Origin: Escherichia coli
Lineage (GTDB): Bacteria; Pseudomonadota; Gammaproteobacteria; Enterobacterales; Enterobacteriaceae
Length of the DNA stretch: 64,000 nucleotides
Assembly (NCBI RefSeq): GCF_003334765.1
Contig: NZ_QOWT01000008.1
Strand: one strand, 5' to 3'
Shown: piece by piece, positions 10,236 to 31,044 of the stretch
How positions within the stretch are numbered: position 1 is the first letter of the stretch
Layout of the letters: each line of letters begins with the position of its first letter
Position numbers and translations under genes: made by a program
Notes under the pieces: model-generated
What the model saw: only the letters and a program-made list of their open reading frames with translations
The model's database searches: none
Told to the model about the DNA's origin: nothing

Positions 10236-10325
10236 AATGGCGGGACATGTAGGCCGGATAAGACGCTGTAGGCCGGATAAGACGCGTCAGCGTCGCATCC
10301 GGCAATCAGCATCCGGCAATCACCA
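10236..10325. repeat. REP cluster (tandem GTAGGCCGGATAAGACGC units plus GCATCCGGCAATC units)
   Basis: Imperfect palindromic REP motifs read directly between convergent ypfG and tktB. Confidence 0.7.
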
Positions 10326-18462: not shown

Positions 18463-19475
18463 TTATTGAACGTTGTCGTGAACTGGCGTTGCGAGCGCCC
18501 GCCAGAGTGGTTTTTCCGGATGCGTTAGACCAACGTGTGCTGAAAGCCGCGCAATATTTACATCAACAAGGTCTGGCAACGCCCATTCTGGTCGCCAATC
18601 CGTTTGAACTTCGTCAGTTTGCGCTCAGTCACGGCGTGGCGATGGACGGGCTACAGGTGATTGATCCGCATGGCAACCTCGCAATGCGGGAAGAATTTGC
18701 TCATCGCTGGCTGGCCCGCGCGGGCGAAAAAACGCCGCCGGATGCGCTGGAAAAACTTACCGACCCTCTGATGTTCGCCGCAGCAATGGTCAGCGCCGGT
18801 AAAGCGGATGTCTGTATCGCGGGCAACCTCTCTTCCACGGCAAATGTGCTGCGTGCCGGATTACGCATTATCGGCTTGCAGCCAGGCTGTAAAACGCTCT
18901 CTTCCATTTTCCTGATGTTGCCACAGTACAGCGGCCCGGCGTTGGGCTTTGCCGATTGCAGCGTGGTGCCACAGCCGACGGCGGCGCAGCTGGCGGATAT
19001 CGCGCTTGCCAGTGCCGAAACCTGGCGCGCCATCACCGGAGAAGAGCCGCGCGTGGCGATGCTGTCGTTTTCCAGCAATGGTAGCGCCCGTCACCCCTGT
19101 GTTGCTAACGTCCAGCAGGCGACAGAAATCGTCCGTGAGCGCGCACCAAAGCTGGTGGTGGATGGCGAGTTACAGTTTGACGCCGCCTTCGTGCCGGAAG
19201 TGGCGGCGCAAAAAGCGCCTGCCAGCCCGCTACAGGGCAAGGCCAATGTGATGGTTTTTCCGTCGCTGGAAGCCGGAAATATTGGTTACAAAATCGCACA
19301 ACGACTCGGCGGATATCGTGCCGTCGGGCCACTGATACAAGGACTTGCCGCGCCGATGCACGATCTCTCTCGTGGTTGTAGCGTGCAGGAAATTATCGAG
19401 CTGGCGCTGGTGGCAGCTGTGCCGCGTCAGACAGAAGTGAACCGCGAAAGCAGTTTACAAACACTGGTTGAATGA
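18459..19475 (+). CDS. eutD: EutD, phosphotransacetylase
   Basis: 338 aa PTA-family protein; 4-nt overlap with eutT. Confidence 0.93.
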
Positions 19476-19513
19476 ACGGTCCCGTTCTGGACCCTGATAA
19501 AGAGGAAAGCACA

Positions 19514-19807
19514 ATGGAAGCATTAGGAATGATCGAAACCCGGGGCCTGGTTGCACTGATTGAGGCTTCTGACGCGATGGTGAAAGCTGCGCGCGTCAAG
19601 CTGGTTGGTGTTAAGCAGATTGGCGGCGGCCTGTGTACTGCCATGGTTCGTGGTGATGTTGCAGCCTGTAAAGCCGCGACCGATGCAGGTGCCGCAGCGG
19701 CACAGCGTATCGGCGAGCTGGTATCTGTACACGTTATCCCGCGTCCGCACGGCGACCTGGAAGAAGTCTTCCCGATCGGCCTGAAAGGCGATAGCAGCAA
19801 CCTGTAA
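19514..19807 (+). CDS. eutM: EutM, BMC-domain hexameric shell protein
   Basis: Internal ATG 19514 after AGAGGAAAG gives 97 aa starting [15 protein letters not shown]. Confidence 0.93.
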
Positions 19808-19913
19808 TCACCCTGTGTGACGTCGATTCGGGCGTCACGCTCTCTCCTTTTTCATTTTACCTTCTGCGGAGGGTAGGGGGAGCTTTTACCTGAAATACGC
19901 CACGGAGGCGGGT

Positions 19914-20201
19914 ATGAAACTGGCAGTCGTCACTGGACAAATTGTTTGTACCGTACGCCATCACGGACTGGCGCATGACAAATTGCTGATGGTGGAAATG
20001 ATTGATCCACAAGGTAATCCTGACGGGCAATGCGCCGTCGCCATCGACAATATTGGCGCGGGAACCGGGGAGTGGGTGTTACTGGTGAGTGGCAGTTCCG
20101 CCCGCCAGGCGCATAAAAGCGAAACGTCACCGGTCGATCTGTGCGTGATTGGCATTGTCGATGAGGTGGTGTCTGGCGGTCAGGTAATTTTCCACAAATA
20201 A
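19914..20201 (+). CDS. eutN: EutN, pentameric vertex shell protein
   Basis: 95 aa; GGAGG RBS upstream. Confidence 0.93.
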   Translation: MKLAVVTGQIVCTVRHHGLAHDKLLMVEMIDPQGNPDGQCAVAIDNIGAGTGEWVLLVSGSSARQAHKSETSPVDLCVIGIVDEVVSGGQVIFHK

Positions 20202-23640: not shown

Positions 23641-23642
23641 AT

Positions 23643-23826
<184 letters not shown>

Positions 23827-23856
23827 ATAAATAACAACTAACAGGGAGTAAAGGCG

Positions 23857-25083
23857 ATGGGAATTAACGAAATCATCATGTACATCATGATGTTCTTTAT
23901 GCTGATAGCTGCCGTAGACAGGATCCTGTCGCAGTTCGGCGGTTCTGCTCGTTTCCTCGGTAAGTTCGGTAAAAGTATCGAAGGATCAGGCGGTCAGTTC
24001 GAAGAAGGCTTTATGGCAATGGGCGCACTGGGCCTGGCGATGGTCGGTATGACCGCGCTGGCACCGGTACTGGCTCACGTTCTCGGGCCGGTAATTATTC
24101 CGGTTTACGAAATGCTCGGCGCTAACCCATCGATGTTCGCCGGAACACTGCTGGCGTGCGATATGGGCGGCTTCTTCCTCGCCAAAGAGCTGGCGGGCGG
24201 CGACGTAGCCGCGTGGCTATACTCTGGGTTAATTCTCGGGTCGATGATGGGGCCAACGATTGTGTTTTCCATTCCGGTGGCGCTCGGCATTATCGAACCT
24301 TCTGACCGTCGTTATCTGGCGCTCGGCGTGCTGGCGGGCATTGTGACCATTCCGATTGGTTGTATCGCTGGTGGTCTGGTTGCTATGTACTCCGGTGTGC
24401 AGATCAACGGCCAGCCGGTGGAATTCACTTTCGCCCTGATCCTGATGAACATGATCCCGGTGATCATTGTTGCGATTCTGGTGGCGCTGGGGCTGAAATT
24501 CATCCCGGAAAAAATGATCAACGGCTTCCAGATCTTCGCCAAATTCCTCGTTGCATTGATCACCCTCGGTCTTGCCGCTGCGGTAGTGAAATTCCTGCTT
24601 GGCTGGGAACTGATCCCCGGTCTGGATCCTATCTTTATGGCCCCTGGCGATAAACCCGGTGAGGTGATGCGCGCCATTGAAGTTATCGGTTCTATCTCCT
24701 GCGTTCTGTTAGGGGCGTATCCGATGGTGCTGCTGCTGACTCGCTGGTTTGAAAAACCGCTGATGAGCGTCGGTAAAGTACTGAATATGAACAACATCGC
24801 GGCAGCCGGCATGGTGGCAACGCTTGCCAACAACATCCCGATGTTCGGCATGATGAAGCAGATGGATACCCGCGGCAAAGTCATCAACTGCGCCTTCGCC
24901 GTTTCCGCTGCTTTCGCCCTGGGCGACCACTTAGGCTTCGCCGCTGCCAACATGAACGCCATGATCTTCCCGATGATTGTCGGCAAGTTGATCGGCGGCG
25001 TAACGGCGATTGGCGTGGCGATGATGCTGGTGCCAAAAGAAGACGCGACCGCGACTAAAACCGAAGCGGAGGCACAATCGTGA
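23857..25083 (+). CDS. eutH: EutH, ethanolamine permease
   Basis: 408 aa polytopic membrane protein. Confidence 0.95.
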   Translation: MGINEIIMYIMMFFMLIAAVDRILSQFGGSARFLGKFGKSIEGSGGQFEEGFMAMGALGLAMVGMTALAPVLAHVLGPVIIPVYEMLGANPSMFAGTLLACDMGGFFLAKELAGGDVAAWLYSGLILGSMMGPTIVFSIPVALGIIEPSDRRYLALGVLAGIVTIPIGCIAGGLVAMYSGVQINGQPVEFTFALILMNMIPVIIVAILVALGLKFIPEKMINGFQIFAKFLVALITLGLAAAVVKFLLGWELIPGLDPIFMAPGDKPGEVMRAIEVIGSISCVLLGAYPMVLLLTRWFEKPLMSVGKVLNMNNIAAAGMVATLANNIPMFGMMKQMDTRGKVINCAFAVSAAFALGDHLGFAAANMNAMIFPMIVGKLIGGVTAIGVAMMLVPKEDATATKTEAEAQS

Positions 25084-26483
25084 ACACTCGCCAGCTATTG
25101 AGCGTCGGTATCGATATCGGCACCACCACCACCCAGGTGATTTTCTCCCGGCTGGAGCTGGTTAACCGTGCGGCGGTGTCGCAGGTGCCGCGCTACGAAT
25201 TCATTAAACGCGAAATTAGCTGGCAAAGTCCGGTGTTCTTTACCCCTGTCGATAAACAGGGCGGTTTAAAAGAAGCGGAACTGAAAACCTTAATACTCGA
25301 GCAATATCATGCTGCGGGTATTGAGCCGGAAAGCGTTGATTCTGGTGCCATCATCATCACCGGTGAAAGCGCGAAAACCCGCAATGCTCGCCCGGCGGTG
25401 ATGGCGCTCTCTCAGTCGCTGGGCGATTTTGTCGTTGCCAGCGCCGGGCCGCACCTCGAATCCGTGATCGCCGGTCACGGAGCCGGGGCACAAACCCTTT
25501 CTGAACAACGGCTGTGTCGGGTACTGAATATCGACATCGGCGGTGGCACCGCGAACTACGCCCTGTTCGATGCCGGAAAAATCAGCGGCACTGCCTGCCT
25601 CAACGTCGGTGGTCGCCTGCTGGAAACCGACAGCCACGGGCGCGTGGTTTACGCTCATAAACCGGGGCAGATGATTGTGGATGAGTGCTTCGGTGCAGGC
25701 ACCGACGCCCGTTCGCTGACCGGCGCGCAGCTGGTGCAGGTGACCCGGCGGATGGCAGAACTGATTGTCGAAGTGATTGACGGAACGCTCTCACCGCTCG
25801 CGCAGGCATTGATGCAAACCGGTTTGCTGCCCGCAGGTGTTACGCCCGAAATCATTACGCTTTCTGGCGGCGTGGGCGAATGTTATCGCCACCAGCCCGC
25901 CGACCCGTTCTGTTTTGCCGATATTGGCCCGCTGCTGGCAACTGCGCTGCATGACCATCCGCGCCTGCGTGAGATGAACGTACAGTTTCCGGCGCAAACC
26001 GTGCGCGCCACGGTGATTGGCGCGGGCGCGCATGCCCTTTCGCTCTCTGGCAGCACAATCTGGCTTGAGGGCGTACAACTGCCGCTGCGCAATTTGCCGG
26101 TGGCGATCCCGATTGATGAAACGGATCTGGTGGGGGCCTGGCAACAGGCGCTGATTCAGCTGGATCTTGATCCCAAAACTGACGCGTACGTGCTGGCGCT
26201 TCCCGCCTCGCTGCCTGTGCGTTACGCCGCGGTACTGACGGTCATCAACGCGTTGGTCGATTTCGTCGCGCGTTTTCCGAATCCGCATCCCCTGCTGGTG
26301 GTGGCCGGGCAGGACTTTGGTAAAGCTCTGGGCATGTTGTTGCGCCCACAGCTACAACAACTCCCGTTGGCAGTCATTGACGAAGTGATTGTCCGCGCGG
26401 GGGACTATATCGACATTGGTACGCCTCTTTTTGGCGGATCGGTTGTGCCGGTGACGGTGAAATCACTCGCATTTCCTTCCTGA
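25080..26483 (+). CDS. eutA: EutA, ethanolamine ammonia-lyase reactivase
   Basis: 467 aa; 4-nt overlap with eutH. Confidence 0.95.
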   Translation: MNTRQLLSVGIDIGTTTTQVIFSRLELVNRAAVSQVPRYEFIKREISWQSPVFFTPVDKQGGLKEAELKTLILEQYHAAGIEPESVDSGAIIITGESAKTRNARPAVMALSQSLGDFVVASAGPHLESVIAGHGAGAQTLSEQRLCRVLNIDIGGGTANYALFDAGKISGTACLNVGGRLLETDSHGRVVYAHKPGQMIVDECFGAGTDARSLTGAQLVQVTRRMAELIVEVIDGTLSPLAQALMQTGLLPAGVTPEIITLSGGVGECYRHQPADPFCFADIGPLLATALHDHPRLREMNVQFPAQTVRATVIGAGAHALSLSGSTIWLEGVQLPLRNLPVAIPIDETDLVGAWQQALIQLDLDPKTDAYVLALPASLPVRYAAVLTVINALVDFVARFPNPHPLLVVAGQDFGKALGMLLRPQLQQLPLAVIDEVIVRAGDYIDIGTPLFGGSVVPVTVKSLAFPS

Positions 26484-26494
26484 GGGAACGACTT

Positions 26495-27856
26495 ATGAAA
26501 CTAAAGACCACATTGTTCGGCAATGTATATCAGTTTAAGGATGTAAAAGAGGTGCTGGCTAAAGCCAACGAACTGCGTTCGGGGGATGTGCTGGCGGGCG
26601 TCGCAGCGGCAAGCTCACAGGAGCGCGTGGCGGCAAAGCAGGTGTTGTCGGAAATGACCGTAGCGGACATCCGCAATAATCCGGTGATTGCCTATGAAGA
26701 TGACTGCGTGACGCGGCTGATTCAGGACGATGTTAACGAAACGGCCTACAACCAGATTAAAAACTGGAGCATCAGCGAACTGCGTGAGTATGTGCTGAGC
26801 GATGAAACCAGCGTGGACGACATTGCCTTTACCCGCAAAGGGCTGACCTCGGAAGTGGTCGCGGCGGTAGCGAAGATTTGCTCCAACGCGGACCTGATCT
26901 ACGGCGCGAAGAAAATGCCGGTAATCAAAAAGGCCAATACCACCATCGGTATTCCGGGCACCTTTAGCGCCCGTTTGCAGCCAAATGACACCCGTGACGA
27001 CGTGCAAAGTATCGCCGCGCAAATCTACGAAGGGCTTTCCTTCGGGGTGGGCGATGCGGTGATCGGCGTTAACCCGGTGACTGACGACGTGGAAAACTTA
27101 AGCCGCGTGTTGGATACCATCTATGGCGTGATCGACAAATTCAACATCCCAACTCAGGGCTGTGTACTGGCGCACGTCACCACCCAGATCGAAGCGATCC
27201 GTCGTGGCGCACCGGGCGGGCTGATTTTCCAGAGTATCTGTGGCAGCGAAAAAGGGCTGAAAGAGTTTGGCGTGGAGCTGGCGATGCTCGACGAAGCGCG
27301 CGCAGTGGGCGCGGAGTTCAACCGTATCGCCGGGGAAAACTGCCTCTACTTCGAAACCGGACAAGGCTCTGCGCTATCCGCTGGCGCTAACTTCGGCGCA
27401 GACCAGGTAACGATGGAAGCACGTAACTACGGGCTGGCGCGTCATTACGATCCGTTTATCGTCAACACCGTGGTCGGCTTTATTGGGCCGGAGTATCTCT
27501 ACAACGACCGCCAGATTATCCGTGCTGGCTTAGAAGATCACTTTATGGGCAAGCTGAGCGGCATCTCTATGGGCTGTGACTGCTGTTATACCAACCACGC
27601 TGACGCTGACCAGAACCTCAACGAAAACCTGATGATCCTGCTCGCCACCGCAGGCTGCAACTACATCATGGGGATGCCGCTGGGTGATGACATCATGCTC
27701 AACTACCAGACCACCGCATTCCACGATACCGCCACTGTGCGTCAGTTACTCAACCTGCGCCCGTCACCGGAGTTTGAACGCTGGCTGGAAAGCATGGGCA
27801 TTATGGCAAACGGTCGCCTGACCAAACGGGCGGGCGATCCGTCACTGTTCTTCTGA
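26495..27856 (+). CDS. eutB: EutB, ethanolamine ammonia-lyase large subunit
   Basis: 453 aa; GAGGGAA RBS; only 11 nt after eutA. Confidence 0.97.
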   Translation: MKLKTTLFGNVYQFKDVKEVLAKANELRSGDVLAGVAAASSQERVAAKQVLSEMTVADIRNNPVIAYEDDCVTRLIQDDVNETAYNQIKNWSISELREYVLSDETSVDDIAFTRKGLTSEVVAAVAKICSNADLIYGAKKMPVIKKANTTIGIPGTFSARLQPNDTRDDVQSIAAQIYEGLSFGVGDAVIGVNPVTDDVENLSRVLDTIYGVIDKFNIPTQGCVLAHVTTQIEAIRRGAPGGLIFQSICGSEKGLKEFGVELAMLDEARAVGAEFNRIAGENCLYFETGQGSALSAGANFGADQVTMEARNYGLARHYDPFIVNTVVGFIGPEYLYNDRQIIRAGLEDHFMGKLSGISMGCDCCYTNHADADQNLNENLMILLATAGCNYIMGMPLGDDIMLNYQTTAFHDTATVRQLLNLRPSPEFERWLESMGIMANGRLTKRAGDPSLFF

Positions 27857-29946: not shown

Positions 29947-29991
29947 CCTGTCGGAGGTGCCGGGTGTCCTACAACACCCGGCATTAACATC

Positions 29992-31044
29992 ATGAAAAAG
30001 ACCCGTACAGCCAATTTGCACCATCTTTATCATGAACCCTTACCCGAAAACCTGAAGCTCACGCCGAAGGTCGAAGTGGATAATGTTCATCAACGACAGA
30101 CAACGGATGTCTATGAACATGCTTTAACGATTACCGCCTGGCAGCAGATTTACGATCAGCTGCATCCGGGCAAGTTTCATGGTGAATTTACGGAAATTCT
30201 ACTCGATGATATTCAGGTTTTTCGTGAATACACCGGTCTGGCGCTGCGTCAGTCGTGCCTGGTCTGGCCGAACTCGTTCTGGTTTGGCATTCCGGCGACG
30301 CGCGGTGAGCAGGGATTTATCGGTTCGCAATGTCTGGGAAGCGCGGAAATCGCCACCCGCCCTGGTGGCACTGAATTTGAACTGAGCACGCCGGATGATT
30401 ACACGATCCTGGGCGTGGTGCTTTCTGAAGATGTCATCACCCGGCAGGCTAACTTTTTGCATAACCCGGATCGGGTATTACATATGTTGCGTAACCAGTC
30501 GGCGCTGGAAGTGAAAGAGCAGCATAAAGCCGCGCTGTGGGGCTTTGTCCAACAGGCGCTGGCGACGTTTTGCGAGAATCCGGAAAATCTCCATCAGCCT
30601 GCAGTGCGAAAAGTGCTGGGGGATAATTTGCTAATGGCGATGGGGGCCATGCTGGAAGAAGCGCAACCAATGGTGACGGCGGAAAGCATCAGTCATCAGA
30701 GTTACCGTCGATTGCTTTCCCGCGCCCGTGAATATGTGCTGGAAAACATGTCCGAACCGGTGACGGTGCTGGATTTGTGTAATCAACTGCATGTCAGCCG
30801 CCGCACGCTACAAAACGCGTTTCACGCTATTTTAGGCATTGGCCCGAACGCGTGGCTGAAACGCATTCGCCTGAACGCCGTACGCCGCGAACTGATAAGT
30901 CCGTGGTCGCAAAGTATGACGGTAAAAGACGCCGCCATGCAGTGGGGATTCTGGCATCTGGGGCAATTTGCCACGGATTACCAGCAGCTGTTTTCCGAGA
31001 AGCCGTCACTGACGCTGCATCAGCGGATGCGGGAGTGGGGGTGA
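29992..31044 (+). CDS. eutR: EutR, AraC-family activator of the eut operon
   Basis: 350 aa; C-terminal AraC-type HTH. Confidence 0.93.

Follow-up and report, generated by a model that had tools for sequence, protein, structure and literature searches.

The shell of the ethanolamine microcompartment contains thousands of EutM hexamers for about 60 EutN subunits, and how a single operon delivers this ratio is, to our knowledge, not documented for eut. The question arises at the spacer of 106 nucleotides (nt) between eutM and eutN in a 64,000-nt stretch of Escherichia coli DNA (contig NZ_QOWT01000008.1 of assembly GCF_003334765.1; hereafter the window). The spacer holds RNA hairpins that are under selection and sit at a boundary of both protein and messenger RNA (mRNA) abundance. 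We tentatively favour, with less than even confidence, the reading that it is a boundary module of the malE-malF/puf type, which would combine an exonuclease block with translational uncoupling and add at most weak termination.

The abundance boundary is apparent from published measurements. In the proteome of E. coli W3110 with the eut operon, EutM reaches 96, EutN 1, EutE 27, EutB 37 and EutL 39 on a scale where EutQ is 100 (PMC11334477). The first hairpin of the spacer, H1, lies at the boundary of the most abundant shell protein, EutM, and the least abundant, EutN. RNA sequencing (RNA-seq) of strain LF82 in minimal medium (uninduced) and with bile salts (induced) gave, in reads per kilobase per million mapped reads (RPKM), uninduced/induced values of 108/357 for eutD, 55/177 for eutM, 5/62 for eutN, 14/149 for eutE, 13/147 for eutJ and 35/168 for eutG (PMC6379400). 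The eutM/eutN ratio in LF82 is 11 in the uninduced and 2.9 in the induced state.

A sequence-only reading of this stretch had placed a partial terminator after eutM, which would yield more eutS-eutM transcript in keeping with the high demand for EutM relative to EutN and the enzymes. The protein values agree as far as EutN is concerned, but EutE, EutB and EutL stay abundant. Where it predicted a step in RNA-seq coverage at the junction, the published RPKM values show a dip at eutN, but no lasting step-down follows: on induction eutE, eutJ and eutG (147-168) are back near the level of eutM (177), which argues against an efficient terminator.

The spacer and its predicted structures

The features on which the argument turns are the following, all on the + strand.

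19514-19807, +: coding sequence of eutM, the major hexameric shell protein, with stop codon TAA at 19805-19807
19808-19913, +: 106-nt spacer between eutM and eutN, found once per E. coli genome, without RefSeq annotation
19815-19840, +: hairpin H1, 10 base pairs (bp) and a 6-nt loop, beginning 7 nt past the eutM stop
19817-19824 with 19831-19838, +: conserved core of H1, GUGACGYC pairing with GRCGUCAC
19841-19857, +: pyrimidine-rich tract UCUCUCCUUUUUCAUUU, the 'U tract' of the sequence-only reading
19842-19848 with 19876-19882, +: predicted helix P2, CUCUCCU with GGGGGAG, present in the minimum free energy (MFE) structure
19858-19875, +: hairpin H2, UACCUUC-UGCG-GAGGGUA, 7 bp with a UNCG-type loop
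19876-19882, +: G-run GGGGGAG, the 3' strand of P2, invariant in Escherichia and Citrobacter apart from the single-nucleotide polymorphism (SNP) G19880C
19883-19897, +: A/U-rich stretch CUUUUACCUGAAAUA, predicted to be single-stranded
19898-19910, +: hairpin H3, CGCC-ACGGA-GGCG, holding the eutN Shine-Dalgarno sequence GGAGG (19904-19908)
19914-20201, +: coding sequence of eutN, the pentameric vertex protein

H1 is formed by a 5' arm GTGTGACGTC (19815-19824), the loop GATTCG (19825-19830) and a 3' arm GGCGTCACGC (19831-19840), joined by ten pairs that include two G-U and six G-C, and is followed directly by TCTCTCCTTTTTCATTTT (19841-19858), exactly as the earlier reading had described it. Its free energy is -16.2 kcal/mol alone and -17.4 kcal/mol in a 49-nt co-transcriptional context, where it makes up 98% of the ensemble (z = -4.39) and none of 200 shuffled sequences folds as well; contexts of 121, 137 and 201 nt retain it in both their MFE and their centroid structure. 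The motif GTGACG-N4-30-CGTCAC occurs once in the window, with 0.05 occurrences expected. Across the + strand of the 64 kb, some 25 segments of 30 nt reach -17 kcal/mol or lower, hairpins this stable come about once per 2.5 kb (a chance of about 4% for any given 106-nt spacer), and a generic terminator scan of the window returned 23 sites versus 23.3 in shuffled sequence. Taken alone, then, H1 exceeds chance just modestly, and its conservation between species, rather than its stability, is the decisive evidence that it is real.

Both G-U pairs would turn into A-C mismatches in the complementary strand, which marks H1 as a structure of the sense-strand RNA. A bidirectional or antisense terminator was rejected on the same mismatches and on the missing U-tract after the hairpin on the minus strand. 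Rfam covariance models gave no match above the gathering threshold at the site in a search of the whole window, and none up to E = 10 in 19750-19960 on either strand.

The DNA belongs to the E. coli chromosome: many strains match a 301-nt query covering the site at 100% identity, 5408 of 5426 complete genomes contain it, at a median of one place per genome, and the names eutM and eutN are those of the RefSeq annotation of identical E. coli DNA. The spacer is indeed unusually long, as had been claimed, because the remaining junctions of the eut operon are overlaps or gaps of 10-38 nt, with the exception of eutG-eutH, whose 216 nt are filled with repetitive extragenic palindromes (REPs). Since 106 is not a multiple of 3, eutN here lies in a different frame from eutM; the two genes share a reading frame in 23 of 44 loci (L001-L045), and the annotation of S. 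Typhi gives them as one fused open reading frame (ORF) of 690 bp (PMC3548604). Upstream of eutM, an in-frame ATG (19472-19513) overlaps the eutD stop (ATGA) and would extend the gene to an ORF of 111 amino acids (aa); the LF82 annotation uses the longer form (335 nt), and RefSeq the 97-aa form with a Shine-Dalgarno sequence of its own. The spacer contains no promoter match on either strand, the nearest on the + strand being at 19975, inside eutN.

Conservation and replacement in the Enterobacteriaceae

Every eutM-eutN spacer was extracted from a sample of 48 loci encoding EutN relatives in GTDB species genomes. A long spacer (52-211 nt) is present in all Enterobacteriaceae of this sample as well as in a Pseudomonas and two Rhodocyclaceae, the latter two groups having long structured spacers without U-tracts. 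Spacers of the H1 type occur in Escherichia, the C. freundii complex, two other Citrobacter lineages, K. spallanzanii, Buttiauxella, Entomohabitans and Yokenella. In 21 of 22 aligned sequences the core shows all eight pairs of GUGACGYC/GRCGUCAC; the Yokenella hairpin, with arms AUGACGCCA/UGGCGUCAU, is misplaced by this alignment. Seven of the eight pairs are invariant and one covaries between C-G, U-G and U-A. The loop ranges from 4 to 20 nt among orthologues, and the distance from the stop codon to H1 is held at 5-9 nt.

The contrast with the surrounding sequence is what reveals selection. The arms of H1 are identical to those of E. coli at 15-16 of 16 positions in Escherichia, Citrobacter, K. 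spallanzanii, Buttiauxella and Entomohabitans, while the four-fold degenerate sites of eutM and eutN together are 45-53% identical in Buttiauxella and Entomohabitans and 55-66% in Citrobacter and Klebsiella; in the two more distant genera the nine bases 5' of H1 match at 3-4 positions and the loop at 0-2 of 6. Because the arms stay identical while the four-fold sites, loop and 5' flank diverge, H1 is under selection and maintained in six genera. Without the loop, the spacer as a whole shows 81-88% identity when E. coli is compared with Citrobacter or Klebsiella. SNPs in the sampled E. coli fall at 19813, 19847, 19855, 19865 and 19880 and spare the stems of H1 and H2. The palindrome itself is common: a metagenome scan with GTGACGTCA-N3-14-GACGTCAC gave at least 120 matches in unrelated contigs (L053-L172), most matching both strands, and among the matches listed only L069, essentially identical to B. 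agrestis, adjoins eutM/eutN. A match to the motif is thus not sufficient by itself to identify the element.

The structures 3' of H1 are also maintained, to different degrees. H2 is predicted in every context folded, and its pairing is retained by double changes in Citrobacter R56, Citrobacter NCU1 and K. spallanzanii (L008, L009, L041), with four of its six pairs altered on both sides. H3 is paired in 98.9% of alignment cells, its changes being one-sided only. For H1, H2 and H3 together, 98.1% of cells pair, compared with 30-65% when the partners are slid, and the covariation score of 0.223 (0.136 in shuffles) was reached by none of 500 shuffles. Helix P2 is a putative element: it depends on context, being lost in a longer fold, although Entomohabitans has an analogous arrangement. 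The stretch UUUUACCUGAAAUA (19884-19897) is kept in all hairpin-type spacers, with ACCUGAA conserved even in Buttiauxella and Entomohabitans, and is absent from REP-type spacers; it resembles the atpE translational enhancer UUUUAACUGAAA. The predicted partner of UUACCU in Entomohabitans is the eutN Shine-Dalgarno sequence. In Buttiauxella (L036-L039) one long stem-loop 3' of H1 (z = -3.1 to -3.5) pairs upstream sequence with the eutN Shine-Dalgarno/AUG region; the ribosome-binding site (RBS) there is occluded to about the same degree when the upstream sequence is shuffled.

Sister lineages have a different content at the same position.

Loci L005, L010, L013, L014, L016, L019, L021, L025, L026, L028-L030, L034 and L035: eutM-eutN spacers of the REP type

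These spacers hold one or two REPs and no U-tract, and belong to Salmonella, K. pneumoniae, the K. oxytoca group, C. koseri, C. amalonaticus, Pseudocitrobacter and Pluralibacter. Their REPs carry the GCCGGATAAG...CTTATCCGGCCTAC motif, as do those of the window at 10273, 23696 and 35611, and give sub-threshold matches to naRNA4. Copy number and position vary by lineage, and the pattern suggests that the H1 module was replaced by REPs repeatedly and independently. The E. coli spacer belongs to a different class, as it has neither the GCCGGATG...CTTATCCGGCCTAC palindrome nor a naRNA4 match; H1 was rejected as a REP, a bacterial interspersed mosaic element (BIME) or another repeat, the spacer being single-copy in each genome and the H1 motif occurring once in the window. 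Elsewhere in the operon, four REP copies in a BIME-like cluster fill the 216-nt eutG-eutH spacer (23641-23856, +; Rfam naRNA4 match at 23695-23776), over which RPKM in LF82 climbs from 168 for eutG to 514 for eutH (PMC6379400).

Possible roles of the boundary in termination, translation and RNA decay

The explanation closest to the sequence-only reading is a partial intrinsic terminator, in which H1 would form behind the polymerase and release a fraction of transcripts at about 19846-19852, leaving more eutS-eutM transcript. The stem is well suited to this: it has 10 bp and a 6-nt loop, its 0.62 kcal/mol per nt equals that of the trp and T7 terminators, and between 14 and 33 kb no terminator-like site ranks above H1. 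The tail is not. The U-rich tract is present as had been described but is no canonical U-tract, since its first eight nucleotides, UCUCUCCU, alternate four U with four C, no two consecutive U occur before position 8, and a run of five U begins only 8 nt past the stem. The four rC:dG pairs expected in the hybrid would disfavour release in intrinsic termination. A score of the d'Aubenton-Carafa type, calibrated on five classic terminators, gave -20 for H1 versus +7 to +36 for the classic five, while four terminators of the window scored +10 to +28 (two more, at 1220 and 54950, were left out because A-U pairs extend into their U-tracts); the weighted T score of the tail is 2.0, compared with 2.9-5.1 in the classic set. 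The E. coli tail passes only the lenient threshold of the terminator scan.

The comparative record of the tail is mixed. It is pyrimidine- or U-rich right after H1 in five of the six genera, and in Buttiauxella (UUUCUUUAAC, CUUCUUUUACC) it comes nearer to a true U-tract, with one orthologue scoring +4.5, but all other orthologues score negative, the Yokenella hairpin has no U-rich tail, and the spacers of the REP type do without one. Uninduced LF82 mRNA does fall from 55 RPKM at eutM to 5-14 at eutN, eutE and eutJ; against this stand the recovery on induction and the abundance of EutE, EutB and EutL described above. A terminator also leaves H2 unexplained: H2 lies 3' of any H1-dependent release point and is nevertheless kept by compensatory changes, which implies a function in the read-through RNA. 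We regard partial termination as a serious but doubtful alternative; a weak, perhaps ancestral, terminator may exist at the tail, and it is unlikely to be the whole or main story. A Rho loading site seems unlikely by inspection, as the C-rich, G-poor stretch is just about 25 nt long, lies between stable hairpins and is followed by the RBS.

Searches of existing 3'-end data and literature returned little for this site. The supplements of TRS and SMRT-Cappable-seq studies hold no eut entries, and a search for eutM/eutN terminators, small RNAs or CsrA found nothing specific. A weak antisense 3' end lies opposite 19737 on the minus strand, in the 3' part of eutM (Adams et al. 2021: MG1655 2572217 +, score 946); the 60 nt upstream of it are the reverse complement of 19737-19797, which implies an antisense transcript that crosses the spacer or starts near it. 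No promoter match for such a transcript was found on the minus strand.

The boundary module that we favour would act mainly after transcription, separating eutM from eutN through about 100 nt of structured RNA: H1, H2 with its flanking helix, an A/U-rich single strand, and a hairpin containing the eutN Shine-Dalgarno sequence. The long eut mRNA would be cut in the A/U-rich stretch 3' of the hairpins, a candidate RNase E site being GC|UUU at 19883/19884 by comparison with the motif RN|WUU, as quoted in PMC5927463. The stem-loops would then halt 3'-to-5' exonucleases and leave a longer-lived upstream segment that ends just past eutM, while the poorly translated eutN segment would decay faster, giving the two segments different half-lives. 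As H1 begins 5-9 nt after the eutM stop, it would also break translational coupling and separate eutN from the heavy ribosome traffic of eutM, so that eutN would initiate alone at a moderately structured RBS; the C-interrupted tail may add a small share of termination. Part of what is expected of a protective structure is found here, namely a stable RNA structure at the 3' boundary of an abundant segment that is conserved between species. The substitution by REPs, the tail-less Yokenella hairpin and the conserved H2 likewise favour a boundary module over a simple terminator.

Several observations weigh against this interpretation. An exonuclease block needs only a stable stem, which leaves unexplained both the near-invariant sequence of H1 and the pyrimidine-rich tail kept in five of six genera. 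REPs also insert into spacers functionlessly, and their presence in sister lineages is only suggestive. Pairs of P2 are broken by uncompensated E. coli SNPs at 19847 and 19880 (C19847A in EDL933). The eutM/eutE RPKM ratio shifts from 3.9 in the uninduced to 1.2 in the induced state, which a fixed difference in stability does not predict. Finally, the Term-seq lists of Adams 2021, a study in which eut was uninduced, contain no sense-strand 3' end at the site.

A purely translational device, improbable in our estimate, would have the spacer keep EutN synthesis low while leaving the mRNA unaffected, by uncoupling, by a hidden RBS or by a repressor, for which CsrA is a candidate through GGA at 19868-19870, 19879-19881 and, in the H3 loop, 19904-19906. 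It would suit the roughly 100-fold EutM:EutN protein ratio, which far exceeds the 3- to 11-fold mRNA ratio, the long spacer in every lineage examined, and the maintenance of both the stop-to-H1 distance and the Shine-Dalgarno hairpin H3. The predicted cost of opening the RBS also fits the protein data, being 13.5 kcal/mol for eutN and lowest, at 5.3 kcal/mol, for eutM. This cost is wholly local, however, amounting to 13.3 kcal/mol with the context from -20 to +40 alone, and the natural upstream spacer occludes the eutN RBS less than shuffled spacers in 21 of 27 loci; H1 and H2 are thus self-contained and do not hide the eutN start, and sequestration of the RBS by them was rejected. Moreover, uncoupling requires distance rather than conserved hairpins, the literature search found no link between CsrA and eutN, and intensity-based absolute quantification (iBAQ) is imprecise for a protein of 95 aa. 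Going further, the whole spacer could be a dedicated cis-regulatory RNA domain made up of H1, CUCUCC with its three Shine-Dalgarno-like partners, H2, UUUUACCUGAAAUA and the Shine-Dalgarno hairpin, an idea we consider decidedly improbable; if it were true, a trans-acting factor or a condition would tune the ratio of EutM facets to EutN vertices and hence the size or closure of the microcompartment.

It is also very improbable that the invariant GUGACGYC/GRCGUCAC stem is recognised in a sequence-specific manner, as RNA or DNA, by a protein or nuclease that would make it a regulated switch and not a passive barrier. Seven of eight stem pairs never vary although neutral sites are saturated, and the CUCUCC tract, which resembles an anti-Shine-Dalgarno sequence, faces GGAGGG, GGGGGAG and the true Shine-Dalgarno sequence GGAGG; but the arm spacing of 4-20 nt speaks against a dimeric DNA-binding site (a CRP-like or other such site was rejected on this ground), the Rfam search gave no family, many lineages that still use ethanolamine have lost the element and carry REPs in its place, and the palindrome recurs widely in unrelated contigs from metagenomes. 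Least credible to us, and highly improbable, is that the spacer has no present function and is the tolerated remnant of an old insertion or terminator. That REPs can replace its content in sister lineages, that SNPs in P2 are tolerated and that hairpins of this stability are frequent in the window would all be compatible with a remnant. The identity of the loop-less spacer far above that of four-fold sites (81-88% versus 55-66% for E. coli against Citrobacter and Klebsiella), H1 arms matching at 15-16 of 16 positions at the distance of Buttiauxella while neighbouring bases have diverged, and the compensatory changes in H2 argue against it.

Part of the control over the shell ratio may lie in this conserved RNA boundary element between eutM and eutN, which sister genera have exchanged for REPs, and the proposal can be tested. 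When eut shells are cloned or refactored, keeping or removing the spacer could change the ratios of shell proteins.

Other junctions of the operon have features of their own. The eutK-eutR spacer (29953-29994, +) contains a 12-bp hairpin (29956-29985, about -21 kcal/mol) without a U-tract; GGAGG lies just 5' of the stem, the eutR ATG (29992) is 6 nt 3' of it and has no Shine-Dalgarno sequence beside it, and folding could bring a 'split' Shine-Dalgarno sequence to the eutR start. In the window, eutB (from 26495) comes immediately after eutA (to 26483) within 25080-27856, leaving the operon uninterrupted; K-12 differs in having the CPZ-55 prophage (intZ, yffL-yffS) between the two genes.

Known systems compared with the eut spacer

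The ANTAR (EutV-type) targets in the eut operons of Firmicutes consist of two hexaloop hairpins with A at position 1 and G at position 4, the second overlapping a terminator. The eut spacer of E. coli does not fit this description, as the loop of H1 is 4-20 nt long and variable in sequence and H2 has a tetraloop; this candidate was rejected.

The rplL-rpoB attenuator is one example of an internal leaky terminator, and leaky intrinsic terminators within operons set subunit stoichiometry in clostridial ABC importers (PMC9045158). They share with eut a GC-rich hairpin followed by a pyrimidine- or U-rich stretch after a gene needed in excess. Unlike them, the eut tail is interrupted by C at four of its first eight positions and scores low, and the downstream mRNA recovers on induction.

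A classic intergenic stabiliser of upstream mRNA is the malE-malF REP of E. coli (Newbury, Smith and Higgins 1987, as presented in PMC5927463). As at eutM-eutN, one or more stable stem-loops follow a gene needed in excess and are proposed to block 3'-5' exonucleases after downstream cleavage, and the likeness extends to the REPs held by the eutM-eutN spacers of Salmonella, Klebsiella and several Citrobacter. The E. coli eut element, however, is not a REP but a single-copy sequence without GCCGGATG/CTTATCCGGCCTAC, and a stabilising role for it is what we infer. Closer in this respect is the 'mRNA decay terminator' of the puf operon of Rhodobacter capsulatus, an intergenic stem-loop (Chen, Beatty, Cohen and Belasco 1988, as cited in PMC5927463), which is likewise a hairpin of unique, non-repeat sequence that separates abundant structural subunits from scarcer downstream products. 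Organism and sequence differ, and the function of the puf element has been shown by experiment, whereas that of the eut element would follow by analogy.

More generally, Dar and Sorek (2018) found protective 3' structures to be conserved, and fewer ribosomes on the less stable gene (PMC5927463). As proposed for eut, a conserved hairpin in their operons divides a stable segment with good translation from an unstable one with poor translation, and sequence conservation is raised over the structure, but most of their structures lie within the downstream coding sequence, unlike the spacer element of eut, and eut is absent from their expressed operons (0 mentions, PMC5927463). A further parallel comes from the cip-cel cellulosome operon, where RNA is selectively processed and stabilised (PMC4423207, PMC10311766), and from the junction stem-loops that set stoichiometry in the papBA/cfaAB pilin operons (as cited in PMC5927463): here too stem-loops at gene junctions serve a multiprotein assembly that requires a large excess of its major structural subunit; these systems belong to other lineages, differ in sequence and, unlike eut, have mapped processing sites. 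Set against these precedents, the eutM-eutN element opens no new class but would add one case to the known intergenic stem-loops that shape the stoichiometry of an operon.

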